Shown in pieces: positions 5,401 to 38,480 of a stretch of 64,000 nucleotides of DNA (position 1 is its first letter; each line of letters starts with the position of its first letter). Under the pieces are notes generated by a model, which had not been told where the DNA came from, searched no databases, and saw only the letters and a list, made by a program, of their open reading frames with translations. Made by a program: the position numbers and the translations under genes. The stretch is taken from the sequence record NC_100372.1. One strand, given 5' to 3'. The DNA is from a phage.

Positions 5401-6283
5401 CTCTGGCCCCTGTACCGCCCTGCTCTATAGCAAGAGGTTGCCACGAGGCTGTTTGTTGGTTCCACATACCCCAACGGCCTGTTGCATCAAGCTGCAAGTA
5501 CCCTGCCGTGTTTAAATCATCTCCGGCACGGATAACTGTTCTTGTTGGGTTGTTTGCCTCCAGGCGTTTAAATTCGTCACGAAGTGCTATTCTTTTTGTT
5601 GTTGCTACACCGTTGGCTACTGCAATGGTATACATGGCTCCGGAGGTAGCGCCACGGAAAATGCCATCAACAGTTGTAGTATCACGACGAGATACCACAC
5701 CGTTCAGAAATTTTTCACCCGCCGCTTCAGAAGGGTAGTTAGTAGTTCTTCCCTCTTCAATAACTGCAGGACCAACAAAGTTGACAAGGTGAATAACATC
5801 GCCTACAGTATGCACTGTGCCAAAATCTACCCGCTGTGCAAGTGCTTTAGCATCGTTGGCTGTCTGAACAGTAACATCCATTACATCCTGGACAGACTGC
5901 CCTTCGGCTGTCATGATCATAGATGCGCCAATGGTAGACTCCAGCTCCTCCCTTAAGGACGGATCTGTATATACCATCCACGCAGCGTCAGTAATCCCAC
6001 CGTCAGAATATGGTGAAGACAGTGCAGGGACAGTGTGTGGAAATTCGCCTTTCCAACGCAGGTATAGATCTTCCTCTTCGAAGTAGGCAAAATCCATTGG
6101 GCCGTTTAACTTACCACCTTCCTTAAAGGAGATTACATGAGAAACAGTCCCATCCACATGGACAACATCGCCAATTTTCACACGACGGGTCAGGTCTGGT
6201 TGTTGAACAACCAGGTAATCATCCTCTGTCACTGCGGTAGTGGCAGGAAGAGATTCAATTCTGACAACTTTAATATCAGCCAT
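2474..6283 (-). CDS. long tail fibre protein with C-terminal intramolecular chaperone (peptidase S74-like) domain
   Basis: 1269 aa; C-terminus DRDLKDNIEVIPNALEAIRKMKGYTYTLKENGMPHAGVIAQEVMEALPEAVG matches the auto-cleaving chaperone domain of endosialidase and T5 L-shaped-fibre type proteins; Gly/Thr/Asn-rich repetitive body; N-terminus paralogous to ORF 8918..9586. Confidence 0.8.
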   Translation of the reverse strand: MADIKVVRIESLPATTAVTEDDYLVVQQPDLTRRVKIGDVVHVDGTVSHVISFKEGGKLNGPMDFAYFEEEDLYLRWKGEFPHTVPALSSPYSDGGITDAAWMVYTDPSLREELESTIGASMIMTAEGQSVQDVMDVTVQTANDAKALAQRVDFGTVHTVGDVIHLVNFVGPAVIEEGRTTNYPSEAAGEKFLNGVVSRRDTTTVDGIFRGATSGAMYTIAVANGVATTKRIALRDEFKRLEANNPTRTVIRAGDDLNTAGYLQLDATGRWGMWNQQTASWQPLAIEQGGTGARDAAGARINLGAFYKQRAALESNFNINNLTGNQDGIYYQPMTAYATEANGYPAGSGAGHLIVWQNNANGGTGCRQEYYPFSNVDVWYLRTYQANTNQWTAWQPMVRPRNDETFRSHIGLGSRNSPTFGHLYLSQSSADVKSASGIVNGDKYSADGVLEHGYRIYSEVRNDNKAWLTIHLHKGAKGSETHRYLGFREDGVLDCPKYMQVGDLNGQLANWGLGEWIRSSRAERGFWGSKKAAKMVIWDGGMDEQGEGTLEWGVYNNRKAKWEPLPIACGGTSARTVGDAQAQFRIPLAAGARPYVNLPRTAAMQDGKYYPIIVRTDPNFAATIGTDLTIVTRSSSGGDPMNCATLQCHYRTGGWTDRGDSFQGVINFYQNERAILGCVSPTRGKQEYVAFYVEARAFPVTVYAGATVIEVSTREADWQVGNVTGNQDGVKFCAPLESADLSLAIKGDDVTNTRPLVEFKGTSGFYTGGGTMWHYLGTPERYAVMSKTNMPKVELWADGLDYLCYGSPRKALFSNAGFQCASDGTEDLTNGTFTSKCGNGAGLQGQAEFRSTPEAGQVIVRDVVGSAHRFYNFNKDGTFSAPGGFVCHTGGDWNNQFGPNNPSKIMAGNVNGPEGSMVVGGLSVAFSGNYAFQMAGRLDQLYTRSIEGGNHRAWNKVIQHRGQGLGTEDLNAYDGSREGFYHQGSNADALVIDRHYPAPYAGTLLVYKNTANRPQGCVQEYITYFGDRYTRAGNYVGDVFTWEEWRHDAGKGIQLRPNYTFGETSNQLEIHVGANSLSSNADNLPANSGRMYYWGNGADRKNVLEFQINDNSSSASWVFHCGARADEAKSRYFAVNGVVECTTVSQSSDRDLKDNIEVIPNALEAIRKMKGYTYTLKENGMPHAGVIAQEVMEALPEAVGSFVKRKEVPGSTQDGIPLMTEERFYNVDYAAVTGLLVQVCREQDDKITSLEEQVKKLTEVVTGLQEKLK

Positions 6284-6318
6284 TCTTTCTCCTGAAAGGG
6301 GGCAAACAGCCCCCTATG

Positions 6319-8916
6319 TTAAAGGTACAATCCACGGTATTGAGCATAAAGGCCAAGACCGCGAAGGATTTCGCCAGAGTGATAGCCTACCGGATCAGAA
6401 ACTGCCCAGCAGCCATTTAAAACATTATCCCCATTAATAAAGTGGTGCTTTTGCAGTAGCTTCATACAGGCTTCTACAACAATATCTATTTGAGGTATTG
6501 TTTCTGAATACCCGCACAGACCTAGCCAGCAGCAACCTGCAAGCCATTCACCTACCACCCACATCCTATCTCCTCTATCTTGATAAGAGTATCCACCAGA
6601 GGTGTTAAAGTCTGTAGGCAAATTTCCTGAATGGGATGACTGGAATCTGTTGAGGAACCATGCCCATTTCTGGCAGAACAGGAACAGTCTTTCATCAACA
6701 GGCTCTTTATGTTTCTTGAGCTCATATATTGTGCGGCACGCAGCAACAAAAGATCTTGACTGGAGCTTAGAGTTATCTACCATCTCCCACCAACCAGTCA
6801 ACCCTTCATTACCTCTTTGCCATACATAACGTGAGGCAACTGGACCCTCTGTCTTAAATGTATTGTTATACCAGACTTGAGAGTCATACAGAAAGCCTAT
6901 TGTATTTGACAATCTATGGCGGTCTATGTTTTCTGCACCCATGCAGTAGACTGCTGGGTATTGCATACCAGGACAGGGCCAACTTGGCCTTTCCTCTAAG
7001 AGATAATTTTCCTTATCTATCACCTTTCCGGCAGGGAACACACCTGGGGTGTGCCTGTAGGCACCTTGCTTGTAGTTTCTGACATAGCAATCACCAACCT
7101 TGGCGGTTGATTCTGTCTTGCTTGCCATCCATACGCTAAACCAGATTAGATAAGCATCCCTATCTGCAACATAAAATTGCGGCAGTGTGTTGACGCAATA
7201 CAGATCGAACAAGCCATTACCTATCTGCCTGTCGCTCAGACTGAAATCTACAGAGGTAATTCCTTTAGGGTTAGCAAAGAAAGGTTTAATCTCATCTTCT
7301 GTGTGATGAGGTTGTGTTGGGTCTAGTTTAAAATCACCTAGGGTAAGAGTTTCTGTTACCCATTGCCCGTTAGTGGCATATAGATCAGCATACCATAACC
7401 AACGGTCTTTGTCAAGAAATTTGACCCTTACCATCTCATCATCTGATCGATAAGTCACTGAGTTTAAAGAAATCTCTCTTCCAAAATTGAAAGTTACTTT
7501 GCCTCTTACTATATTGCAACGGGTGAAGTTGTCGGAGTGGTTGTAAATGTCGGTACCATACTGCATACTGACACTCGCGCCACCGCTTACGGTAATGTTT
7601 TCCTCTTTTGGCAAGAGATACGGGTTACCGTCTTTACCAACCACCTCCACGAAATCGGTGACCTTGGCAACTGTCTCTGTTACCTCTGCCCCTCCAAAAG
7701 GGACCCCTATCCTATACTGTTTTTTGTTATTGTTGCCATCATTAAGGATGAAATGTGGCTGGAACAGGACCCCTTCTCCTCCAAAATTCATAACAATTTC
7801 GGCATCTCTGCCTATTTTGTATGTAGTCCCTTTTTGGATTATTTCGCAAGGCTGGCGTGCGTTCATTCTAAAATTGATATATCCGTCACTATCCCTACTC
7901 ATGACAGGTACTGTTCCTGCAACTAGACAAGCGCCATCTGTGAACGGGGCCTTAATCAACGTGGTCTTTCTGAACAGCTTGTCGTAGGCATTTATATCAC
8001 TAAAATTAAGCAACTTATTGTAAGACTGCTTAAACGCGGTGTAATACTTTTCCTCACCTGTCAGGGTGTAGAGTTGATAACAAGCGTCACACCACATCTC
8101 TTCCCCATCTAACTCTGGGGCTTGATTGTCTGCAACCACGTTTATAGGATTTACAATTACAGGGGATCCAGCAGGTATCACCGATCCGCCCTGCTCTTGA
8201 GGCAATCTCACACAATAGGTAACCTTGTGGTTGCCTGTAACACCCTTATCTTGCAGTTGGATTGTGCCGAACTCTGCAGACGTATGACCACTGTCGGCTA
8301 TGCTACCGTTGGCCCAATAGCGGTTACCATCCCATGCTATATACCACTCAACCCACCAACTTAATCCGGAAGTTGTCCAATTAGGATTAGCATCTGTGCC
8401 GCCGTAAACATCAGAGTCTACAGTGTTTCTTCCTAAAACACCGTTATACGCCTGAAAAGCCTTGTCCAAGTATTCTCCCCATGTCGGGGATCCTGCTGGG
8501 ATTTTTCCTCTACCTTTGTTAAAAGACACAACCACATCTTTAAACCCACCATGTGATGGAACTCCATCTGTGGATAACGGGTAGTGGGACAATCTTTGCA
8601 TTTTACTTTCTACTGCATATACTCCCAGAAGATGACTGTTGTAGGCTTCCCAAGCCTCTTTGGCCCTGTCCAGATAAAAATCGCTTTTTGATGCCCTGTA
8701 TGCCTCAATGTATCCCAGAATCAACACAGCTTGGGACTCATGCATTGCCCAATCATTATTTATCTTACTTCCTGACCAACCTGACGCTATAAGTCCATCC
8801 TGGTTTACCAGTTTGTTCTGTGTAGGGAGATTGGTAATACCTGTGTTGTTATCGAGGCACTTCCTGTGCCCCTCGATCATCTGAAATACGTTATCAATGT
8901 TGTGTTGAATACGCAT
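6319..8916 (-). CDS. putative tailspike / enzymatic receptor-binding protein (possible depolymerase)
   Basis: 865 aa, Trp/Tyr-rich, enzyme-like N-terminal region (GWSGSKINNDWAMHESQAVLILGYIEAYRASKSDFYLDRAKEAWEAY); sits between the short fibre/adaptor and the long fibre. Confidence 0.4.
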   Translation of the reverse strand: MRIQHNIDNVFQMIEGHRKCLDNNTGITNLPTQNKLVNQDGLIASGWSGSKINNDWAMHESQAVLILGYIEAYRASKSDFYLDRAKEAWEAYNSHLLGVYAVESKMQRLSHYPLSTDGVPSHGGFKDVVVSFNKGRGKIPAGSPTWGEYLDKAFQAYNGVLGRNTVDSDVYGGTDANPNWTTSGLSWWVEWYIAWDGNRYWANGSIADSGHTSAEFGTIQLQDKGVTGNHKVTYCVRLPQEQGGSVIPAGSPVIVNPINVVADNQAPELDGEEMWCDACYQLYTLTGEEKYYTAFKQSYNKLLNFSDINAYDKLFRKTTLIKAPFTDGACLVAGTVPVMSRDSDGYINFRMNARQPCEIIQKGTTYKIGRDAEIVMNFGGEGVLFQPHFILNDGNNNKKQYRIGVPFGGAEVTETVAKVTDFVEVVGKDGNPYLLPKEENITVSGGASVSMQYGTDIYNHSDNFTRCNIVRGKVTFNFGREISLNSVTYRSDDEMVRVKFLDKDRWLWYADLYATNGQWVTETLTLGDFKLDPTQPHHTEDEIKPFFANPKGITSVDFSLSDRQIGNGLFDLYCVNTLPQFYVADRDAYLIWFSVWMASKTESTAKVGDCYVRNYKQGAYRHTPGVFPAGKVIDKENYLLEERPSWPCPGMQYPAVYCMGAENIDRHRLSNTIGFLYDSQVWYNNTFKTEGPVASRYVWQRGNEGLTGWWEMVDNSKLQSRSFVAACRTIYELKKHKEPVDERLFLFCQKWAWFLNRFQSSHSGNLPTDFNTSGGYSYQDRGDRMWVVGEWLAGCCWLGLCGYSETIPQIDIVVEACMKLLQKHHFINGDNVLNGCWAVSDPVGYHSGEILRGLGLYAQYRGLYL

Positions 8917-8917
8917 C

Positions 8918-9586
8918 TTAGATAGCTCCTGCGATGATCAGTGCCCCGTACCAAGTTAGTCCATTATCATATGTTTCCAACTTGAAAATGTCTGTTGCAC
9001 CAGCTGTAAATGTTAGGATAGGATCTCTTCCGTAGGCCCATTTAACATTGTCAGGCCAATAAACTTTGTTACCACCAGAGGTCTGCGTTATGCATACAGT
9101 TATAGTTCTTGCCACTCCGTCGAGCCCTTCTGTTTGATTTTCAAAAGAGATTGTGGTGTTTGAAGTGAGCCGAACTTTAAACGTGTCTGCAACGTCAAGA
9201 TCCATGTCAAGTTGACCACCAATAGAGCCGTAATCAACTATCCTACCTGAAGAAGTTGCAGCAAGCTCTCCAAAAACAGACCATGCTTTTGCAGACACAC
9301 CTCCGGCACCCTCTACAGTGGAATCTGGGAGGATTATTTTAGGATAATCTCCATTCCATGTGTAGTAGCGCTTAGTTTCCGGATCATAAGCAAAATCCTT
9401 CTTGCTCTTAAGATAACCGCCCTCTGTGAAATAAACTATTTTAGTAATGCTAAGATCATTGACAACATCATCAATCTTAGCCTTTCTTGTCCCGTCAGTC
9501 TGGTTGACAACCAAGAAGTCATCACTCAAGACTGTTTCTGCATCTTCAAGATCTGGGATTGGTATTGTAGGATAAGCTACAGCCAT
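8918..9586 (-). CDS. short tail fibre / adaptor protein sharing the N-terminal anchor domain of the long fibre
   Basis: 222 aa; N-terminus (IPDLEDAETVLSDDFLVVNQTDGTRKAKIDDVVND...FTEGGYLKSKKDFAYDPE) aligns by eye with the long-fibre N-terminus (LPATTAVTEDDYLVVQQPDLTRRVKIGDVVHVD...FKEGGKLNGPMDFAYFEE). Confidence 0.5.
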   Translation of the reverse strand: MAVAYPTIPIPDLEDAETVLSDDFLVVNQTDGTRKAKIDDVVNDLSITKIVYFTEGGYLKSKKDFAYDPETKRYYTWNGDYPKIILPDSTVEGAGGVSAKAWSVFGELAATSSGRIVDYGSIGGQLDMDLDVADTFKVRLTSNTTISFENQTEGLDGVARTITVCITQTSGGNKVYWPDNVKWAYGRDPILTFTAGATDIFKLETYDNGLTWYGALIIAGAI

Positions 9587-9595
9587 GATTTCTCC

Positions 9596-28965: not shown

Positions 28966-29042
28966 TGGTCTCCACGGAGTGATTCGAACACTCGACCTCC
29001 TGATCCCAAATCAGGCGCTCTACCAAGCTGAGCTACGCGGAG
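28966..29042 (-). tRNA. tRNA-Pro (anticodon TGG), CCA encoded
   Basis: Manual fold: acceptor CTCCGCG/CGTGGAG (one G-T), D arm GCTC/GAGC, anticodon stem CCTGA/TCAGG with loop TTTGGGA, T arm GAGTG-TTCGAAT-CACTC, 3' ACCA. Confidence 0.75.
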
Positions 29043-29053
29043 TATTTATTATT

Positions 29054-29128
29054 TGGTGGCCCTGGGTGGAATTGAACCACCGTCTGGCGATTATGAGTCG
29101 CTTGCTTGAACCTTCCAGCTACAGGGCC
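29054..29128 (-). tRNA. tRNA-Met (anticodon CAT; initiator, elongator or Ile2-type undetermined), CCA encoded
   Basis: Manual fold: acceptor GGCCCTG/CAGGGCC, anticodon loop CTCATAA, T loop TTCAATT, 3' ACCA. Confidence 0.7.
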
Positions 29129-29129
29129 A

Positions 29130-29205
29130 TGGTGCTGATGGCAGGACTTGAACCTGCAACCTATTGATTACAAATCAATTGCACTGCCAATTGTGCTACA
29201 TCAGC
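29130..29205 (-). tRNA. tRNA-Thr (anticodon TGT), CCA encoded
   Basis: Manual fold: acceptor GCTGATG/CATCAGC, anticodon stem ATTGA/TCAAT with loop TTTGTAA, T arm GCAGG-TTCAAGT-CCTGC; 1 nt after tRNA-Met. Confidence 0.75.
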
Positions 29206-29211
29206 AAAAGG

Positions 29212-29308
29212 TGCTAGGTGATGGAATCGAACCACCTATGTATTCAACGACTACCTCGTCTATTTTCAGGATTAAAAATCCTCGCCCTTGCCAAAGGGCT
29301 TACCTAGC
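29212..29308 (-). ncRNA. atypical 97-nt tRNA-like element (possible Lys-UUU-type anticodon loop; not a canonical fold)
   Basis: Perfect 7-bp acceptor GCTAGGT/ACCTAGC, D arm GCCC-TTTGGCAA-GGGC, T arm GGTGG-TTCGATT-CCATC, but the central region is two short hairpins (AGGATTTTTAATCCT and GACGAGGTAGTCGTT), about 31 nt between anticodon-like hairpin and T stem; A at position 8; 3' end ACCT not CCA. Confidence 0.4.
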
Positions 29309-29406
29309 GCAATATGTTGACCATGTGGCTAGTCGGCGATGACGACTGTAACATTTGATAATCCGGTTCTGCTTCCGGCTTTCGCTTAATTACAAGGTCA
29401 ACAATG

Positions 29407-29497
29407 TGGCGGAGAGTAATGGAATCGAACCATCATCGAGTCATCCTCAACGGGACGGTTTTCAAGACCGCTTGAGCACCATTGCTCCCTACCCTCC
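29407..29497 (-). tRNA. tRNA-Ser (anticodon TGA), type II with long variable arm, CCA encoded
   Basis: Manual fold: acceptor GGAGGGT/ACTCTCC (one G-T), anticodon stem GCGGT/ACCGT with loop CTTGAAA, variable arm about 17 nt, T arm GATGG-TTCGATT-CCATT, 3' GCCA. Confidence 0.7.
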
Positions 29498-29611
29498 TTT
29501 ATAAATTACACTGATAATGACACTGATTTTCGAGCAGTTAGTGACTAGTATAAACGACGATAAATATCAATGTCATTATCTGTATGATTTATGCATTTAA
29601 AAATATAAATT

Positions 29612-29698
29612 TGGTGGGGAGTGGTGGAGTCGAACCACCCGAGTCGCAATGACAATAGATTTACAGTCTACACCGCTACCTCTACGGGATAACTCCCC
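29612..29698 (-). tRNA. tRNA-Tyr (anticodon GTA), long variable arm, CCA encoded
   Basis: Manual fold: acceptor GGGGAGT/ACTCCCC, anticodon stem GTAGA/TCTAT with loop CTGTAAA, T arm GGTGG-TTCGACT-CCACC, 3' ACCA. Confidence 0.7.
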
Positions 29699-29702
29699 AA
29701 TT

Positions 29703-29777
29703 TGGCACCCCGTACTGGACTCGAACCAGTGTCAACGGCTTAGAAGGCCGCTGCTTTATCCACTAAGCTAACAGGGC
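29703..29777 (-). tRNA. tRNA-Arg (anticodon TCT), CCA encoded
   Basis: Manual fold: acceptor GCCCTGT/ACGGGGT (two G-T), D arm GCTT/AAGC, anticodon stem GCGGC/GCCGT with loop CTTCTAA, T arm ACTGG-TTCGAGT-CCAGT, 3' GCCA. Confidence 0.7.
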
Positions 29778-30212: not shown

Positions 30213-30557
30213 GTTTCCTCCATTATCACGTGATAGGTGGATTTTATCACGGCAAATACTGATTGTCAAGTTCGCCGCAGGGTGGTATTCCCTGCGACTT
30301 GCCCAGCGTCCTGGACCAGCAAGACCCAACAAGTGGGTTACCAGATACCCATTACCGCGCTCTGGCTCGACCTTATTACAGGTTGGCTGGGGTCACATCG
30401 TCATGTGCTGGCTGCCCCTACCATTTTAAGTGTGGTGCACTATCAAGCCCTCTAAGGGGAACTCAGCCTTCTCCGAACCCTGTTTCAAAGCATCCGGAGA
30501 TAAAGCCATCAAACTCATCTTTAAATTGGATATTCATCATGATACACGAAAACAACC

Positions 30558-31654: not shown

Positions 31655-32160
31655 AGCAGACTCCTCTTCAAGTTATAGAAAAAACTCACTGTATCGCTTT
31701 GTAACGAGCTTTTCTATCAAACTGGTGCGATTGCCTTACTTGGTATAGTTTATATAGCTGTGGAGCGATTTAGGGGCCTTCTTGTCAGTTTCCACACATA
31801 AACTTTATCCGAACTCGCGCGGGAGGCTCTCAACCGACTCCTTCCGGCGCTGGCAAGCTTTCGTCGGTGGTCCACATTAGTGCTCGGCCTTTGGCCTGTG
31901 CTATCGCTTCGCTCCCACACATGTTAACAGTCCTGCATGTATGCACTTCTGTTATTGTGTGCACTATGGAGGCCCGGCATCTCGCCCCTCGTAGGCGAGT
32001 GCCAATGAAGGGCCGACACTACCCATAATAAGTAATAAATTTAAAACATGGTACTTAGGATCTAGTATATTCTACATAAGTTAAGTATATGTACTTTAGT
32101 ACCATAAGTACTAGATCTTTTATTTTTTATTATTTAGTTATTTTAGTTATATTCTTTATG

Positions 32161-32243
32161 TGTCCGTATCACGGACAGTTAGTGTCCGTATTACGGGCAA
32201 ATGTGTCCGCGTGACGGACAGTAGTGTCCGTATCACGGACAGT
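32161..32243. repeat. array of four phased palindromic sites (consensus GTGTCCGTATCACGGACAG)
   Basis: Copies start at 32161, 32183, 32204, 32225 (21-22 bp phasing); copies 1 and 4 identical, 2 and 3 degenerate; each has 7-bp inverted arms TGTCCGT / ACGGACA. Confidence 0.65.
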
Positions 32244-32316
32244 TACTAACCTCTGTTCCATAGTGAACATAAAACATACAAATCCTTATAGTACAGATGT
32301 TTAAGTTTTTACTGGT

Positions 32317-32667
32317 CTAACCAGTTGTTGACATTCGAATAACTTCTTCTGGTGGCAAAACTTTGGAAAATGTGCATCTTTTACCTCTCCCTTGTGTGGA
32401 TATTTCAACCACTCCTGCACATTCTAAAGTTTTAACGCACGCTGCTGCTTTTGTTTTCTTTATCCCAACATCTGCTGCAATTTTCCTTGTGCTGGGTGTG
32501 AAGCGTAAATTTTCTCCAAGCTTATACCAGTTGTGCAGGTAGCAGTATACGATCTTGTCATATAAGTCAAGAACAACAACCTCCCCAGTTGTGTCATTCA
32601 AAACTTTTGACATAGACAGTATTTCAAGGGGGACTTTAAGATATAGCAGCTTATCCCCATCTTTCAT
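32317..32667 (-). CDS. putative DNA-binding protein (helix-turn-helix / winged-helix-like)
   Basis: 116 aa; segment STRKIAADVGIKKTKAAACVKTLECAGVVEISTQGRGKRCTF resembles an HTH recognition helix plus wing; the palindromic array lies just 3' of this gene. Confidence 0.35.
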   Translation of the reverse strand: MKDGDKLLYLKVPLEILSMSKVLNDTTGEVVVLDLYDKIVYCYLHNWYKLGENLRFTPSTRKIAADVGIKKTKAAACVKTLECAGVVEISTQGRGKRCTFSKVLPPEEVIRMSTTG

Positions 32668-32714: not shown

Positions 32715-33269
32715 TTACTCCCCGCTGTCAATAGCAAGACTCATTGCAATACGGTATGCCTCTTCTAATGGTAAGAGTCTCCCCCACACATCCCAACCGA
32801 CATCAAACTGCCTGCCAAACAACTGCTGTGTGGTTCCGTGAGCATGACCGAACAGTTGGACTGATCCGTGAGGCTTTCTGTTCCACTTTGCAAACTGGTA
32901 ATGGCTCATACAGATCAAATTCTTGTTGTGGCGAAGCTCGTAATAATCTACAACCTCATGACCGAACTCTTTCATAATTCTGACAGTCGTCCTTGTGTCA
33001 TGGTTACCACGAACAAGAATAATATGTCCGTTCAACATATTTAGAACATCTGGAAGCAATTTGTTGATATTCTTATCATTAGTGCACGCAATATCCCCCA
33101 AGTGAAACACAGTGTCTGCAGGTGACACAACAGAGTTCCACTTGGTGATGATTCCCGCATTCATACTGTCAAGATTGTGATCATACTGAGATCTGTGTTT
33201 TTGACATGAGTCGAACTCCATTACCCGCTGGTGGAGAAAGTGTGTGTCGCTTGTTACAAAGTATTTCAT
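32715..33269 (-). CDS. calcineurin-like metallophosphoesterase (candidate RNA 3'-phosphatase)
   Basis: Start set at ATG 33269 with RBS GAGGAA; motifs SDTHF (DxH), GDIA (GDxx), VRGNHD (GNHD), GHAHG (GHxH). Confidence 0.7.
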   Translation of the reverse strand: MKYFVTSDTHFLHQRVMEFDSCQKHRSQYDHNLDSMNAGIITKWNSVVSPADTVFHLGDIACTNDKNINKLLPDVLNMLNGHIILVRGNHDTRTTVRIMKEFGHEVVDYYELRHNKNLICMSHYQFAKWNRKPHGSVQLFGHAHGTTQQLFGRQFDVGWDVWGRLLPLEEAYRIAMSLAIDSGE

Positions 33270-33276
33270 ACATTCC

Positions 33277-33687
33277 TCATTTAAGTTTAATGCAGTTTTT
33301 AAGCTGGCGTTCCATACGATCCACAACCCTGTCTGGAACATCATGAATGCTTTTATTACCATGGCGGTTTTCAACCACGATCACGGTATAACTATATCCA
33401 TGACTGATCGCCATGTCAATATATTCTTGCACATATTTTTCTTTTGTAAACGTATTACTTACCACGATACGGTCGTAGCCCATACGCATCATATCTTCTA
33501 CGTTATCTTTGCACCATTTTGCTGCAAGTGTTACTTTACTTGCATCCCAATTGTAATTGCCGTCATCGTCGTACCAGAACATATCGTTCTCAAAATGTGG
33601 ATACAGACCTTCTAAAGATAGCGCATTTGCCAGTGTTGATTTGCCAGACCCTGGTAGACCACGCACGATATATAGCATTTTAGACAT
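33277..33687 (-). CDS. P-loop kinase, polynucleotide 5'-kinase-like
   Basis: Start set at ATG 33687 with RBS GGAGAG; Walker A GLPGSGKST at N-terminus; 136 aa; 7 nt upstream of the phosphoesterase gene. Confidence 0.55.
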   Translation of the reverse strand: MSKMLYIVRGLPGSGKSTLANALSLEGLYPHFENDMFWYDDDGNYNWDASKVTLAAKWCKDNVEDMMRMGYDRIVVSNTFTKEKYVQEYIDMAISHGYSYTVIVVENRHGNKSIHDVPDRVVDRMERQLKNCIKLK

Positions 33688-33715
33688 AGTAACTCTCCGT
33701 TTTAATTTTAATGAT

Positions 33716-33744
33716 AGTATACCTAACTGTTTTGTTAATTTCAA
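33716..33744 (-). promoter_or_regulatory. sigma70-like promoter for kinase/phosphoesterase operon
   Basis: Minus strand TTGAAA (33744-33739), 17-nt spacer, TATACT (33721-33716); a plus-strand TTGACA at 33748-33753 suggests a divergent promoter for the ligase operon, but its -10 is weak. Confidence 0.45.
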
Positions 33745-33787
33745 GTGTTGACACCAAGTTATTTGTGTGGCAGGATAAAGGGACAAA

Positions 33788-34723
33788 ATGACAAATGAGG
33801 AATGTATAATGAAGTATTTTAATGCAGACAACCTAGTTGACAAAGGTCTTGTAACCAGCAGATATTACCCGGATCTTGGGTTAAAGATCTATAAATATGC
33901 CAGAAAAGTATTCTACAACAATTTATGGCATTTGTCTCCTCGTTTGCTGGAGTGCCGAGGCATTGTTGTCGGTAATGAAGGAAATGTTGTGGCATGGCCC
34001 TTCACAAAAGTGTTTAACTTGGGAGAAAATTCCACCAACCTGCCTGACAATAAACTTGTGACGGCGGTAGAGAAAAAGAACGGATTCCTTGGTGTGGTAT
34101 CATCTCATAAAGGTGAACTATTGTTCTCAACAACCGGGTCTCTTGATTCTCCATATTGTAACCTCGCAAAGGAAACAATCCAGGAGCAATGTGGTAATTT
34201 AGATCTTATCAAGAGGGTTATGGGCCATGAAAACATGACATTCATGTTTGAAATTTGTCACCCTTCAGATCCGCATATTGTTCAGGAAGATCATGGCGCA
34301 TATTTGATAGGTTGCAGATATAATGATTCTGGAATAATGCTACCAGAAGCAGCTTTAGATGGGATTGCCAAATACCTTGGTGCAAAACGTCCTCACACTG
34401 TGCGTGAAATTCCGTTCAGCTATGCAAAAGAATTAGCTGCAGAAACAAGAGGTGAAGGGTATATGATTCGTAAGCCTTACTACCCTTATGATCTGCAGCT
34501 GAAGATCAAGTCTCCATACTATTTGGCACGGAAGGCCGTAATGAGGGGTAAAGCTTGGAAGATTTGGGATGATGATATCTTTAAACGTGTTGACGAAGAG
34601 TTTTACGGCATGGTAAACTTCATTCGTAGAAACTACACAGAAGATGTGTGGAATTGCCTCCTGGAGCAGGAACGACGTGAGATACTTGACTGCTATTTCC
34701 ACAACGAGGACTATATGCAATGA
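33788..34723 (+). CDS. RNA ligase, Rnl2-like nucleotidyltransferase
   Basis: 311 aa; motif I EKKNGF (KxNG, cf. T4 Rnl2 KxHG), motif IV EGYMIRKP (cf. EGYVLKP), motif V LKIKS; alternative start at ATG 33809 with RBS GAGGAA. Confidence 0.6.
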   Translation: MTNEECIMKYFNADNLVDKGLVTSRYYPDLGLKIYKYARKVFYNNLWHLSPRLLECRGIVVGNEGNVVAWPFTKVFNLGENSTNLPDNKLVTAVEKKNGFLGVVSSHKGELLFSTTGSLDSPYCNLAKETIQEQCGNLDLIKRVMGHENMTFMFEICHPSDPHIVQEDHGAYLIGCRYNDSGIMLPEAALDGIAKYLGAKRPHTVREIPFSYAKELAAETRGEGYMIRKPYYPYDLQLKIKSPYYLARKAVMRGKAWKIWDDDIFKRVDEEFYGMVNFIRRNYTEDVWNCLLEQERREILDCYFHNEDYMQ

Positions 34724-35070
34724 AGAAGTTGATTGTGTGGCTGGATGACTTGAGAGATCCGTCAAATTATGGGCTCCCAGATGCTCTTTGGCTAAAGAAT
34801 TCCTCTGAGTTTATGGATTTTATTAACGATAAGGGAAAGCTCTACAGGCGCGTTTCTGAGTGGCACATGGACAACGACCTTGGAGAGGTATTTGAAGGGT
34901 ACGATTGCCTATCTATGCTGGAGGAAAAATTTGTATTTGGTAAGCCTCCTGTAGTTGACAACGTGAAGATTTTCGTGCATACTTCTAACCCATCAGCTGC
35001 TCGTAAATTCATGCTTGCTGCTGACTCGTTTAAAAAGTTTGGAATAGAGATTAAACAAAACATCTACTGA
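34720..35070 (+). CDS. hypothetical protein translationally coupled between RNA ligase and sirtuin
   Basis: 116 aa; start overlaps ligase stop (ATGA); no motif recognised. Confidence 0.4.
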   Translation: MKKLIVWLDDLRDPSNYGLPDALWLKNSSEFMDFINDKGKLYRRVSEWHMDNDLGEVFEGYDCLSMLEEKFVFGKPPVVDNVKIFVHTSNPSAARKFMLAADSFKKFGIEIKQNIY

Positions 35071-35078
35071 GGACACTT

Positions 35079-35840
35079 ATGCGACGACTGATCATTATCT
35101 CCGGTGCTGGTTTGAGCGCTGAATCTGGTATCCCAACTTTCCGATCTGGTGGCACTGCAATGTGGGAGAATTTCAGCATCGATGAGGTGTGTAACATCCA
35201 CACCTTTGCCAAGAACTATTATAAGGTTCATGACTTTTACAATGCACGGCGTGTAGCTCTGGGCAGTGTTGATCCTAACCTTGCACATCTCCGGATCGCT
35301 GAATGGTATTCCCGCTGGTCTGGTCGCGTGATCAACCTGACAACCAATGTAGATGATTTGCTGGAGCGTGCTGGTGTAAAACATGAAGATATTTTACATG
35401 TCCACGGATATTTGCCAGAAATAGTCTACGAGGATGATGAAGGGAGTAACGTCATTAAAGACATTGGATACTCTGAGGTAGATGCAAGCAAGTATACTTG
35501 GGTTAAGCCTAATGTCGTGTTCTTCGGAGAAGTAGCTCCAAAGTATACAGACATGTATGACCTGTTGACTTCTCTGACGAGCAATGATATGGTTATCCTT
35601 GTAGGGTGCTCCAACACAGTTATCAATTTTAACTGGGAGCTATTCCCTGCCTGTAATAAGGGGACCAAACTGCTGATCGTTAACAAATACGACTCACAGC
35701 ATTTAGGGGAGAATGGCATTTCACGTAGTGACATTTACCAGTATGAGGATCGCGGCATCCCAGTTTGGTTTAACGGGGCTGTTGACGCTTTCTCTGATAA
35801 AACATTCATTGACATCGTAGAAAACTTTATGGAACTGTAA
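35079..35840 (+). CDS. Sir2-family NAD-dependent deacylase / ADP-ribosyltransferase homologue lacking the zinc-binding cysteines
   Basis: 253 aa; GAGLSAESGIPTFRSGG NAD-binding motif, FYNARR, PNLAHL, TTNVDDLLERAG, catalytic HG (HVHGYL), VVFFGE, all paralleling E. coli CobB; no CxxC pairs in the expected zinc-ribbon region. Confidence 0.8.
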   Translation: MRRLIIISGAGLSAESGIPTFRSGGTAMWENFSIDEVCNIHTFAKNYYKVHDFYNARRVALGSVDPNLAHLRIAEWYSRWSGRVINLTTNVDDLLERAGVKHEDILHVHGYLPEIVYEDDEGSNVIKDIGYSEVDASKYTWVKPNVVFFGEVAPKYTDMYDLLTSLTSNDMVILVGCSNTVINFNWELFPACNKGTKLLIVNKYDSQHLGENGISRSDIYQYEDRGIPVWFNGAVDAFSDKTFIDIVENFMEL

Positions 35841-35854
35841 GCGGAGGCCTTTTA

Positions 35855-36568
35855 ATGCTGAATACTAAACTGATTGACAACTTGGAAAAACTGTCTCAGC
35901 CTGAAAACTACCTTTGGTCTGCCAACTGGGTGGAAAATTGGAACCGTGTAGCAGCTAAAGTGAAAAAATCATACACACCATTCGAACTTCAGCTGAGTTT
36001 CATTGAGGAAGAGTTCAATGAAGTTTTGGAAGAGTTGGAGAAAGGTGATGGTGGGGATCATCTCCTAAAAGAGGCCTGCGATCTTCACGTTGTCACAAGT
36101 TATGCCGCTTATCTTGTTAACGATAACCATGAAAAGTGGTCAAACCTGTTTGATAATCCGCGAGGTCTTAAGTTTAAGATCGGTGAATTTTATGATACAC
36201 TGATCGCTGCGAAAAATACCTCTAAGCAAAGAGCGTCTGCTTACCGCTTAGCAGAGTTGTCGACAGCTTTGCTGTTCCAGCTTCGCGGTGATGTGTGCGG
36301 GATGATGCGGAAGGTTCTAAAATCTAATGACAGCAAGTTTGCACGCGTCAACCATCTGCGGTATTCACACGGTGCCAGTGCAGATATGCCTGCTGAACAA
36401 CTTATCGAGTTGGAGATTAAAGATCTTGAGCGACGCTTTGATGGTCGCTATGAAGGTTTTGTTGCTAAAGAAGAATTCTACAACGGAAATAAAGTTATCA
36501 TATTCCTCGACAGTAAAGGTAAGATTATGAAGCCTTCAAGCTTCAAGGATGTAACAGAATATATTTAA
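35855..36568 (+). CDS. putative MazG-like nucleotide pyrophosphohydrolase
   Basis: 237 aa; acidic helix motif EEEFNEVLEELEKGD...LLKEACDLHVV resembles the EExxE/D metal-binding motif of MazG/HisE proteins. Confidence 0.35.
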   Translation: MLNTKLIDNLEKLSQPENYLWSANWVENWNRVAAKVKKSYTPFELQLSFIEEEFNEVLEELEKGDGGDHLLKEACDLHVVTSYAAYLVNDNHEKWSNLFDNPRGLKFKIGEFYDTLIAAKNTSKQRASAYRLAELSTALLFQLRGDVCGMMRKVLKSNDSKFARVNHLRYSHGASADMPAEQLIELEIKDLERRFDGRYEGFVAKEEFYNGNKVIIFLDSKGKIMKPSSFKDVTEYI

Positions 36569-36574
36569 TAACAT

Positions 36575-36603
36575 AGCCGGGGCGATCCCGGCTTTACTTG
36601 TTT
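36575..36603 (+). terminator. rho-independent terminator
   Basis: AGCCGGG-GCGA-TCCCGGCT hairpin followed by TTACTTGTTT. Confidence 0.45.
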
Positions 36604-36941: not shown

Positions 36942-37197
36942 TCTTGCTAAACCTGTAGAAGCACACCAGTTTGACGGAAGCTCTTCATCAGTATCTGATC
37001 TGCAACGGTGGATTGATACAGGTGTGTTTACACCGTCACCTGTTCGGACCAGAGATATTCTTCGCATGTGTGAGCTTGTCGAGCCGTTTGGTAACCTGGT
37101 CTTGTACCAAGGGGATTGGTTAGTTGACTTTATGGGAGACTGGTTGGTAATGAGCAAAGAAGAGATGTTTAAAATTTTTAAGGAAGAGGCTGAGTAA
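36928..37197 (+). CDS. hypothetical protein
   Basis: 89-aa ORF; stop overlaps DNA ligase start. Confidence 0.35.
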   Translation: MLLFNLAKPVEAHQFDGSSSSVSDLQRWIDTGVFTPSPVRTRDILRMCELVEPFGNLVLYQGDWLVDFMGDWLVMSKEEMFKIFKEEAE

Positions 37198-38480
37198 TGC
37201 ATCAGATCAAAACAACACTGTACGCACTGAACAAAGATGGCAGCTACCAACAGTGGAAAGTATTCACGGATGGTGATAAGGTTATTGTAGAGTTTGGCAA
37301 GCTTGATGGTAAACTGCAATACAAAGAGACGATCTGCACACCTAAGAACGTGGGTCGTGCCAATGAAACTACAGCTGAGCAACAGGCTGAGCTGGAAGCG
37401 ATCAGTAAGTGGGAAAAACAAGTCCGTCTGGGGTATGTTGAAAATATGGAAGATTGCGAGCAGGGTGTTGACCTTTTACCCATGCTGGTGCATGACTACC
37501 TGAAGCGTGGAAAGGCACTTAAATTACCTTGCTGGATCTTGCGTAAGTTAGATGGCCTTCGTCTACTGGTTGTTTTCCAAAACGGTGAGCCTAAATTTAT
37601 TTCCCGTGGTAATAAGTCCTACCCTATTCAAGGAAAGCTTCTGGAGCAACTTCGTTCTTTCCACTTCACCACCGGGATTAAACAGCTCGACGGAGAGATC
37701 TATATTCATGGTCTGCCTCTGCAGAAAATAGTGTCTCTTGCTAAACGTTGGCGCACACAGGAAGAGATTCAGGCCGAGATCGATAAAGACTACGAGGCAG
37801 ATAAAAAACGCCGTCATGCCGCAATTAAGGCAGGCTTATCAACATACAAAAACTTCAATAAGGTAGATATTCCTGTTGATGTTGAGCCTGTTCGTGATGA
37901 TTTGCGTTACGGAGGGTACTGTAGCTATGACTTAGAGTATCATATTTTCGACATCCCTAGTGACAAGGTATGGTGGGATCCGGAAACAGAATCTGGACGA
38001 TGCAAGGATCTTATGGATGCAGAAGATACCATTACCACTCTGATGCTTGACCATATCAAGGTTGTTGACGCAGAGCTTGCGTACACAGTTGATCATTGCG
38101 AAGAATCTGTTGGTGTATTCATGTCCGAAGGATATGAAGGTACTATCATGCGTAACTTCTGTGGTAAATACGAATACGGTCAGCGAACATCTGAAGCATT
38201 GAAATGGAAAAAGTTCAACGATGCTGAGGTGAAAGTTATTGACGTTGAGAAAGATAAGAATGATGAAGGTGTTCTTATCTGTGTTGACAAGGAAGGTATC
38301 GTTGTTAAAATGAAGATGAAAGGTACGCACGAGGAGCGTAGCTATGACAGGATGCAGGAAATGATCGGCAAGTTTGTCACCTTCAAATATCAAGCAAGGA
38401 CAGAAGACAACAACTACCAATTCCCTGTCGGCATCTGCGTCCGAAATGTTAACCCAGACACTTGGGAGGTTCTGGAATGA
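37197..38480 (+). CDS. ATP-dependent DNA ligase
   Basis: 427 aa; adenylation motif I KLDGLR (KxDG), motif IV-like EGYEGTIMR, motif V-like LKWKK. Confidence 0.8.
   Translation: MHQIKTTLYALNKDGSYQQWKVFTDGDKVIVEFGKLDGKLQYKETICTPKNVGRANETTAEQQAELEAISKWEKQVRLGYVENMEDCEQGVDLLPMLVHDYLKRGKALKLPCWILRKLDGLRLLVVFQNGEPKFISRGNKSYPIQGKLLEQLRSFHFTTGIKQLDGEIYIHGLPLQKIVSLAKRWRTQEEIQAEIDKDYEADKKRRHAAIKAGLSTYKNFNKVDIPVDVEPVRDDLRYGGYCSYDLEYHIFDIPSDKVWWDPETESGRCKDLMDAEDTITTLMLDHIKVVDAELAYTVDHCEESVGVFMSEGYEGTIMRNFCGKYEYGQRTSEALKWKKFNDAEVKVIDVEKDKNDEGVLICVDKEGIVVKMKMKGTHEERSYDRMQEMIGKFVTFKYQARTEDNNYQFPVGICVRNVNPDTWEVLE

Follow-up and report, generated by a model that had tools for sequence, protein, structure and literature searches.

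Does an rV5-like phage of Escherichia coli carry its own machinery for mending broken RNA, and what would such machinery be used against? Three adjacent genes at positions 32715–34723 of record NC_100372.1, encoding a P-loop kinase, a metallophosphoesterase and an RNA ligase, raise the question. The window, meaning the whole 64,000-nucleotide (nt) stretch of DNA analysed, comes from an rV5-like E. coli myovirus (Vequintavirus). An earlier reading made from the letters alone, here called the original prediction, took the three genes for an RNA-repair module directed against host tRNA-cleaving defences. We find that the trio is probably a phage RNA end-healing and end-sealing cassette that follows the logic of T4 Pnkp-Rnl1 using different parts.

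A divergent three-gene cassette

The cassette comprises two units that point away from a short intergenic gap.

32715–33269, minus strand: binuclear metallophosphoesterase, 184 amino acids (aa), predicted to heal RNA ends that carry a 2',3'-cyclic phosphate or a 3'-phosphate (Metallophos_2, Metallophos, phrog_547)
33277–33687, minus strand: stand-alone P-loop kinase, assigned to the polynucleotide 5'-kinase clade, 136 aa (AAA_33, family profile, fold)
33688–33787, no strand: divergent intergenic region, strand-switch point of the segment (open reading frame strands, GC skew, promoter scan)
33788–34723, plus strand: Rnl1-type ATP-dependent RNA ligase, 311 aa, or 304 aa if the start is at 33809 (PF09511, phrog_562, T4 Rnl1 profile, fold)

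The three open reading frames (ORFs) and every motif on which the original prediction was built are present where it had placed them: GLPGSGKST in the kinase; SDTH, GD, GNHD and GHAH in the phosphoesterase; KKNG, EGYMIRKP and LKIKS in the ligase. The kinase/phosphoesterase and ligase units diverge, as it had said, from the 100-base-pair (bp) gap. The kinase stop codon lies 7 nt ahead of the phosphoesterase start on the minus strand, and the ligase begins 100 bp away on the plus strand. A sigma-70-like site serves the kinase operon (33744–33716, minus strand, TTGAAA-17-TATACT) and is followed by GGAGA ahead of the ATG; no comparable plus-strand site of the sigma-70 type for the ligase operon reached the scan threshold within the gap.

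The locus is widely shared among close relatives. The 2.8 kb around the cassette are 97–99% identical to more than 100 public phage genomes, among them NHEP1, the rV5_ev phages and the BASEL phages RudolfGeigy and MaxBurger. The three ORFs coincide with annotated coding sequences of the 97%-identical phage HMD-6, and relatives' records already name the genes 'phosphoesterase', '3'-phosphatase 5'-polynucleotide kinase' (or 'ATPase') and 'RNA ligase'.

The ligase is of the Rnl1 type

Sequence and fold comparisons both place the ligase with T4 Rnl1. It matches PF09511 (RNA_lig_T4_1) at 55.3 bits against a cut-off of 28.3 (expectation value, E, 1.1e-14), covering the whole model from 1 to 227, and phrog_562, the T4 gp63 family, at 7e-66. 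A single-sequence search of the PDB returned nothing useful and a profile of distant homologues was required; built from five sequences, it found T4 Rnl1 (2C5U, 9DO4, 5TT6) at 8e-20 to 2e-18 and the following family only at 7e-4, a difference given as four orders of bit-score. The AlphaFold model has a mean predicted local distance difference test score (pLDDT) of 91.4, and Foldseek ranks T4 Rnl1 first among its neighbours (9.6e-13), with fungal Trl1-LIG and archaeal Rnl3 as near (E about 1e-12 and template-modelling score, TM, about 0.6, as for T4 Rnl1).

These results rule out the Rnl2-like assignment made in the original prediction. The ligase gave no match to PF09414, the Rnl2 family, at E <= 0.01, and structures of T4 Rnl2 resemble its model weakly, ranking 30th or lower (E 9e-6 to 2e-4, TM 0.39–0.43).

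The catalytic residues are intact. K96, G99, E155, E223-G224 and K239/K241 are invariant in 32 sequences, and K96, G99, E155, E223 and K239/K241 align to K99, G102, E159, E227 and K240/K242 of T4 Rnl1. R57, K74 and F76 align to T4 R54, K75 and F77 and are likewise invariant. We take the T4 residues aligned to all of these positions to be essential. The true ligase start may be the second ATG, at 33809, because homologues start there, the model shows disorder at residues 1–7 and a GAGGA stands 8 nt upstream.

Database names raise the idea that the ligase is mainly a tail-fibre attachment factor, the second role of T4 gp63, with unrelated enzymes for neighbours. PHROG and many GenBank records do call the family 'RNA ligase and tail fiber protein attachment catalyst', but that label was carried over from T4 gp63. 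None of the nucleotidyl-transferase residues varies, the gene sits within a non-structural rightward block, and its links and fusions are to the kinase and not to structural genes. We consider such a role highly improbable.

A kinase of the polynucleotide-kinase clade

The kinase is a small P-loop protein whose nearest relatives phosphorylate polynucleotide ends. Pfam assigns it to the generic AAA_33 family (41.1 bits, cut-off 27, E 2.7e-10), and a single-sequence PDB search was uninformative, so that here too a profile of distant homologues was required. Although its E-values are modest overall, this profile ranked Pnkp1 of Capnocytophaga first (4XRP, 6e-6), then T4 Pnk aligned over its full length (1LY1, 7e-4) and CthPnk (4GP7, 7e-3), with gluconokinase and adenylate kinases at 0.02 or worse. 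The AlphaFold model (pLDDT 87) lies nearest to T4 Pnk, the tRNA-dependent kinase PSTK and CthPnk (TM 0.72–0.77), whereas nucleoside monophosphate (NMP) kinases reach 0.45–0.51. By profile and model, the protein belongs to the polynucleotide-kinase clade. Neither placement refutes the original prediction by the condition that it had set: the ligase falls with RNA ligases, not with DNA ligases or capping enzymes, and the kinase with polynucleotide kinases ahead of NMP kinases.

Its P-loop and Asp35 are conserved across the family. G10, G15, K16, T18, D35, N78, T79 and R108 are invariant among 34 sequences, and G13 and S17 are kept in at least 90% of them. In the full-length alignment to 1LY1, Asp35 matches Asp35 of T4 Pnk, the general base; R108 aligns to T4 Arg122 and K112 to T4 Arg126. 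Arg122 and Arg126, together with Arg38 and Asp85, are side chains that we take from T4 Pnk mutagenesis to be essential.

A separate metallophosphoesterase

The third enzyme passes the Pfam thresholds for Metallophos_2 (28.5 bits, cut-off 27) and Metallophos and matches phrog_547 at 5e-51. All six motifs of the superfamily (DxH, GD, GNH[DE], H, GH, GHxH) are invariant in four homologues at 32–37% identity, the residues being D8/H10, G58-D59, G88-N89-H90, H123, G141-H142 and H144. The phosphatase is thus a metallophosphoesterase encoded by its own gene and not a HAD domain fused to the kinase as in T4, which is what the original prediction had proposed.

That prediction had further likened the arrangement to bacterial Pnkp. 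The likeness stands for the superfamily and fails for the clade. Against the PDB, the phosphoesterase profile finds aq_1665 of Aquifex best (1XM7, 7e-18) and otherwise only distant Rv0805/GpdQ-type enzymes. Neither lambda-phosphatase nor the phosphatase domain of Pnkp or CthPnkp appeared even at E <= 10, which rules out the CthPnkp/lambda-phosphatase clade. Sequence comparison places the protein in the aq_1665 clade.

The rV5-type phosphoesterase differs from other homologues at one end. It ends in ...LAIDSGE and is without the C-terminal VVDHH(K) tail that is kept in the phi92-like, Vibrio and Pakpunavirus homologues (loci L002, L003 and L004).

The three genes travel together

Gene linkage is the strongest evidence for the cassette. 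We collected 80 IMG/VR loci whose ligases are 36–88% identical to this one and scanned them with hidden Markov models of the three families within a 6-kb radius; many contigs are incomplete, so the counts are lower bounds. The kinase lies near the ligase in 71 of the 80 loci, the phosphoesterase in 62 and both in 56. The gene order varies, with metallophosphoesterase-ligase-kinase in 24 loci and kinase-ligase-metallophosphoesterase in 18. In 12 of the 80, kinase and ligase form a single polypeptide of about 420 aa. Such linkage and fusions argue for a conserved heal-and-seal module.

The fusions have a context of their own. They occur on uncultured phage contigs (loci L040, at 5560–6825, L041, L046–L051 and L054–L057) as a 421-aa protein with the kinase N-terminal to an Rnl1-type ligase. 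In L040 the fusion is followed 1.7 kb downstream, at 8509–9588, by another ligase, 359 aa long and of a different type with an EKLDG motif, and the same holds in other fusion loci. No phosphoesterase of the cassette's family was found within 6 kb in the fusion loci.

The linkage holds in distant phages. Phosphoesterase, ligase and kinase stand in that order on one strand in phi92-like coliphages, Vibrio phages, Pseudomonas Pakpunavirus and uncultured phages, where the ligases are 38–48% identical to this one; the divergent arrangement is limited to the rV5 lineage. The ligase family spans 1,679 clusters at E <= 1e-5, and the kinase family is larger, with more than 7,900. Across 50,697 phage records, ligase homologues occur in 815 and kinase homologues in 621, with nearly parallel counts by host genus (Escherichia 203/197, Pseudomonas 178/173, Vibrio 83/89). 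Streptomyces and Staphylococcus phages are exceptions to this parallel; Streptomyces phage Yaboi carries its ligase near a T4-type kinase-HAD Pnkp instead. The trio of the original prediction, a Pnk-clade kinase beside a metallophosphoesterase (a split end-healing enzyme) plus an ATP-dependent RNA ligase, is therefore borne out and its linkage is kept far beyond rV5. Family membership, intact catalytic residues, confident folds and conserved linkage, fusions included, form the established part of the case.

The pair of healing enzymes also occurs with other partners. On freshwater phage contigs, kinase and phosphoesterase stand beside a ligase of another RNA ligase family, PF09414, so the two together behave as a portable unit for healing ends in the service of RNA ligases.

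The same linkage bears on whether the pair serves DNA instead. Kinase and phosphoesterase could heal DNA ends (5'-OH and 3'-phosphate) for the phage DNA ligase, whether in replication, recombination or restriction damage, with the RNA ligase incidental. An ATP-dependent DNA ligase gene does lie at 37197–38480, and 26 of the 80 loci have a homologue no more than 6 kb from the RNA ligase. T4 Pnk and mammalian PNKP act on DNA, and the phosphoesterase weakly matches PdeM, the ligase-associated DNA-damage endonuclease (TIGR04123, 2.4e-4), although its 20.6 bits fall far under the 150-bit cut-off. Yet overlaps, fixed adjacency and fusions all involve the RNA ligase and never the DNA ligase, and the association with PF09414 enzymes again joins the pair to RNA ligases. 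We regard DNA healing as improbable.

A predicted healing and sealing pathway

The cassette would act on RNA in a short series of steps. A metal-independent host ribonuclease would cut RNA, most plausibly in a tRNA anticodon loop, leaving one end with a 2',3'-cyclic phosphate and the other with a 5'-OH. The 136-aa kinase would phosphorylate the 5'-OH from a nucleoside triphosphate, using its P-loop and Asp35 as general base. The binuclear metallophosphoesterase would take off the cyclic or 3' phosphate to give a 3'-OH; a receiver-like protein encoded by the next gene of the ligase operon, the cREC protein described below, may first open the cyclic phosphate. The Rnl1-type ligase, adenylylated on Lys96, would then pass adenosine monophosphate (AMP) to the 5'-phosphate and seal the break. 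The substrate and all of the enzymatic activities are predictions, as is the role against host tRNA-cleaving defence, which is taken from the T4 analogy.

Several points weigh against this pathway. In the kinase family an invariant Asn78 stands where T4 Pnk has Asp85, and Arg38 of T4 is not kept. The C-terminal all-helical domain of T4 Rnl1, of about 120 aa, gives tRNA specificity; after motif V the phage ligase has about 55 residues (four short helices, 270–310), roughly half of that domain, so tRNA targeting should not be assumed. The ligase scores 39 bits against the NCBIfam RnlA equivalog TIGR02308, whose cut-off is 242; on sequence it is a member of the Rnl1 family and no equivalog of T4 RnlA. 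To our knowledge, the aq_1665 phosphoesterase clade has no characterised member. The DNA ligase gene 2.5 kb downstream makes DNA ends a possible substrate. Finally, we found in the searchable literature no activity, substrate or phenotype for any member of the three families; searches for experimental work on the cassette, on RNA repair by phage sirtuins and on Vequintavirinae facing tRNA-targeting defences returned computational papers only.

The ligase operon extends beyond the cassette

The cassette does not end at 34723, where the original prediction had closed it. The ligase operon runs on through three more genes to a hairpin.

34720–35070, plus strand: cREC (cyclic-phosphate-processing receiver) domain protein, 116 aa (PF20274)
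35079–35840, plus strand: class III-like sirtuin, 253 aa (PF02146 at 1e-26)
35855–36568, plus strand: MazG-like nucleotide pyrophosphohydrolase, 237 aa, encoded last in the ligase operon (phrog_671 at 5e-22)
36575–36593, plus strand: terminator-like hairpin rich in guanine and cytosine (G+C), closing the ligase-cREC-sirtuin-MazG unit (terminator scan)

The genes are tightly packed. The cREC start overlaps the ligase stop, the sirtuin gene follows after 8 nt and the MazG-like gene after a further 14 nt. The hairpin, with eight pairs of which six are G-C, lies 7 nt past the MazG-like stop codon.

All three added proteins retain their family signatures. The cREC protein scores 53.3 bits against PF20274 (cut-off 27, E 4.5e-14), and D9, D10, D51, D53, H87, S89 and K96 are invariant among 12 sequences; D9, D10, D51 and D53 form the retained receiver-like acidic pocket. 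The activity of cREC is experimentally uncharacterised (PMC9503650). The sirtuin's best solved relatives are SIRT5 and CobB (5e-21). Its GAGxS motif, N90, D92 and catalytic H109 are invariant, and it is without the four zinc-ribbon cysteines, having no CxxC pair. No defence-type SIR2 model in PADLOC matched it, and this, with SIRT5 and CobB as best relatives, rules out a defence-type SIR2 NADase. In the MazG-like protein, E52, E53, E56 and D76 of the EExxE...D signature are invariant in 14 sequences; it gave no Pfam match and no sequence match in the PDB.

SSE121-like phages carry the order ligase-cREC-kinase-sirtuin, which ties cREC and sirtuin to the repair genes. The full six-gene set recurs in loci L001 and L007 and is rearranged in SSE121-like loci. 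Only 10–12 of the 80 ligase loci have a cREC, sirtuin or MazG-like gene (sirtuin in 11, cREC in 10); these genes are best described as lineage-specific extras of the ligase operon, joined to a core of kinase, phosphoesterase and ligase.

A variant of the repair pathway would give these genes a part. As in fungal Trl1-Tpt1, cREC or the phosphoesterase would open the cyclic phosphate to a 2'-phosphate and the ligase would seal. The sirtuin would then remove the 2'-phosphate with nicotinamide adenine dinucleotide (NAD+), as KptA/Tpt1 does, and the MazG-like protein and phosphoesterase would clear the ADP-ribose by-products. We hold this NAD+ route to be possible but unlikely. Ligase, cREC, sirtuin and MazG-like genes do form one tight unit, and in SSE121-like phages cREC falls between ligase and kinase with the sirtuin next. 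The sirtuin keeps its NAD+-binding and catalytic residues, while the missing zinc-ribbon cysteines alter the usual protein-substrate cleft. The ligase fold is as close to fungal Trl1-LIG as to T4 Rnl1; identity to Trl1 is 17–21%, too low for reliable residue-level inference on a need for the 2'-phosphate. Set against this, kinase and phosphoesterase are near-constant partners of the ligase and sirtuin and cREC are rare, and the core does without NAD+ enzymes. The 2',3'-diol ends that a CthPnkp-type metallophosphoesterase yields need no 2'-phosphotransferase. We know of no sirtuin demonstrated to act on RNA 2'-phosphate, which counts against the route.

The route was proposed by Iyer et al. in 2022 (PMC9503650). 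Its most specific element, also theirs, is held still more tentatively here: that a sirtuin without zinc-ribbon cysteines, and not KptA/Tpt1, serves as the NAD+-dependent RNA 2'-phosphotransferase, with cREC as the opener of the cyclic phosphate. If true, this would be the first RNA-repair activity for a sirtuin and for a receiver domain.

tRNA genes and other features near the cassette

A tRNA cluster lies on the other side of the cassette; the original prediction had counted seven phage tRNA genes 4 kb away.

28966–29777, minus strand: seven tRNA genes, Pro-UGG, Met-CAU, Thr-UGU, an atypical Lys-UUU-like gene, Ser-UGA, Tyr-GUA and Arg-UCU (ARAGORN, Rfam, relatives' annotation)

A distance of 2.9 kb separates the cluster from the phosphoesterase, and one of 4.0 kb from the ligase. 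The cluster is context outside the cassette and a possible second line of the same counter-defence. An Rfam scan of 27–40 kb found tRNAs only; one match to rli43 (24.6 bits, cut-off 100) was dismissed as chance.

One gene in the cluster is unusual. The 99-nt tRNA-like gene at 29210–29308 (minus strand) was left unnamed by ARAGORN ('anticodon atcc'), and relatives' annotation calls it tRNA-Lys, tRNA-OTHER or nothing. Inspection by eye shows an acceptor stem of 7 bp, an ordinary T arm and a 7-nt loop, UUUUUAA, giving the anticodon UUU (Lys); an insertion of about 28 nt, with a hairpin of its own, separates the anticodon arm from the T arm. Because PrrC and PARIS target tRNA-Lys(UUU), an aberrant phage copy near a repair cassette is worth noting. 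The spacer between this gene and tRNA-Ser (29309–29406, minus strand) shows, by eye, an 8-bp long-range pairing (TGTTGACC...GGTCAACA) and small internal hairpins, and matches no Rfam family.

Two non-coding islands at 30255–30510 and 31745–32035 (minus strand) lie between the tRNA cluster and the cassette. Their G+C content is 52–57% in a genome of about 40%; neither matches an Rfam family, and folding gives z-scores of about -2.1 to -2.3. Compared with the relative L007 (84–91% identical), the first island shows two compensatory and seven one-sided pair changes with four broken pairs; the second is mixed, with three compensatory, seven one-sided and 13 broken. The islands may be stable RNAs. 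The T4 tRNA cluster encodes two stable RNAs.

These features allow the cassette another client, the phage's own RNAs: it could process the atypical tRNA-Lys-like transcript with its 28-nt insertion, or stable RNAs of the G+C-rich islands, and not repair host damage. The insertion-bearing gene and the two islands are at hand, and the enzyme set is the same as that of eukaryal tRNA splicing. However, the insertion does not sit 3' of position 37, where introns canonically lie, the neighbourhood yielded no splicing endonuclease, and the cassette occurs in many phages with unrelated tRNA sets. We judge such processing quite improbable.

The strand switch coincides with other marks of genome organisation. 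All ORFs of at least 120 aa lie on the minus strand to the left of the gap at 33688–33787 and on the plus strand to its right, and the cumulative GC skew reaches its minimum there. Near this switch and minimum (about 33.6 kb), four tandem iterons of 21–22 bp (GTGTCCGTATCACGGACAG) stand at 32160–32245, each an imperfect palindrome and absent from the rest of the window. They follow just downstream of the gene for a DUF6945/HTH_36 protein (32317–32667, minus strand), annotated as a replication initiation protein. The array may be a replication origin or a regulator-binding array.

Significance

If the cassette works as predicted, tRNA repair is no T4 curiosity. Among its carriers are genera that phage therapy uses (rV5-like, phi92-like and Pakpunavirus phages), tRNA-cleaving immunity would be a widespread selective pressure, and the cassette genes would be candidates for host-range determinants. 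The split kinase/metallophosphoesterase pair and the Rnl1 ligase with its miniature C-terminal domain represent uncharacterised enzyme clades and potential reagents. As a prediction, the cassette is of modest interest pending biochemistry or genetics.

Comparison with known systems

The cassette shares its logic with T4. T4 Pnkp and Rnl1 repair tRNA-Lys cut by PrrC (summarised in PMC10946426). The common elements are a 5' kinase, a 3' phosphoesterase and an Rnl1-family ligase, and both the ligase and the kinase are detectable homologues of their T4 counterparts. In place of the HAD domain fused to the T4 kinase, the phage cassette has a separate metallophosphoesterase, and its ligase C-terminus is about half as long. 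It adds cREC, sirtuin and MazG-like genes.

Bacterial and eukaryotic systems share other parts of it. In Pnkp of C. thermocellum (Pnkp-Hen1), a single polypeptide holds the P-loop polynucleotide kinase, its binuclear metallophosphoesterase partner and the ATP-dependent ligase, whereas the phage uses three separate genes on two strands. The phage phosphoesterase is of the aq_1665 clade and not of the lambda-phosphatase type, and its ligase is of the Rnl1 type and not a Pnkp ligase domain; no Hen1 methyltransferase was found among the Pfam-scanned neighbours or in the annotation of phage HMD-6 for 6 kb on either side. With fungal and plant Trl1 plus Tpt1, the phage system shares an Rnl1-clade ligase fold and a kinase, fused in some phage relatives, and a candidate opener of cyclic phosphate stands with an NAD+-using enzyme in one phage unit. 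Unlike Trl1 (ligase-kinase-cyclic phosphodiesterase), the phage fusions carry the kinase N-terminal to the ligase, and the phage unit is without a 2H cyclic phosphodiesterase and without Tpt1/KptA.

Direct homologues occur in Pakpunavirus, represented by Pseudomonas phages Adele and K8; the K8 ligase is 39% and the kinase 44% identical. The order there is collinear, with the metallophosphoesterase, a gap and then ligase-kinase, and NAD+ salvage genes and a Macro protein follow in place of cREC and sirtuin. In K8 (locus L004, 2473–8833) these encode a ribose-phosphate pyrophosphokinase, a nicotinamide phosphoribosyltransferase and a Macro-domain protein annotated 'phosphatase', so NAD+-related genes adjoin the module in a second lineage by way of different proteins. 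A 2025 paper reads the Adele homologues as tRNA repair (PMC12846349).

As a prediction the cassette is already known, and it is nothing unusual in this group of phages. An earlier paper defined the cREC domain and connected it with RNA ligases (PMC7824862), and a year later, in 2022, Iyer, Burroughs, Anantharaman and Aravind described a sirtuin-centred phage RNA-repair neighbourhood whose type 2 has Escherichia phage V5 and Proteus phage Mydo as prototypes (PMC9503650). That neighbourhood comprises a T4-like tRNA ligase, cREC, a nucleotide kinase, a pyrophosphatase of the MazG superfamily, a sirtuin and a calcineurin-like phosphoesterase, for which they proposed RNA end clean-up and ligation (PMC9503650). 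Locus, phage genus and gene content are identical to those studied here, and all six genes fall within 32715–36568. Our counts adjust the published picture in one respect. Iyer et al. call the phosphoesterase 'occasional'; seen from the ligase, it and the kinase are the constant partners, and the sirtuin, like cREC, is the occasional one.

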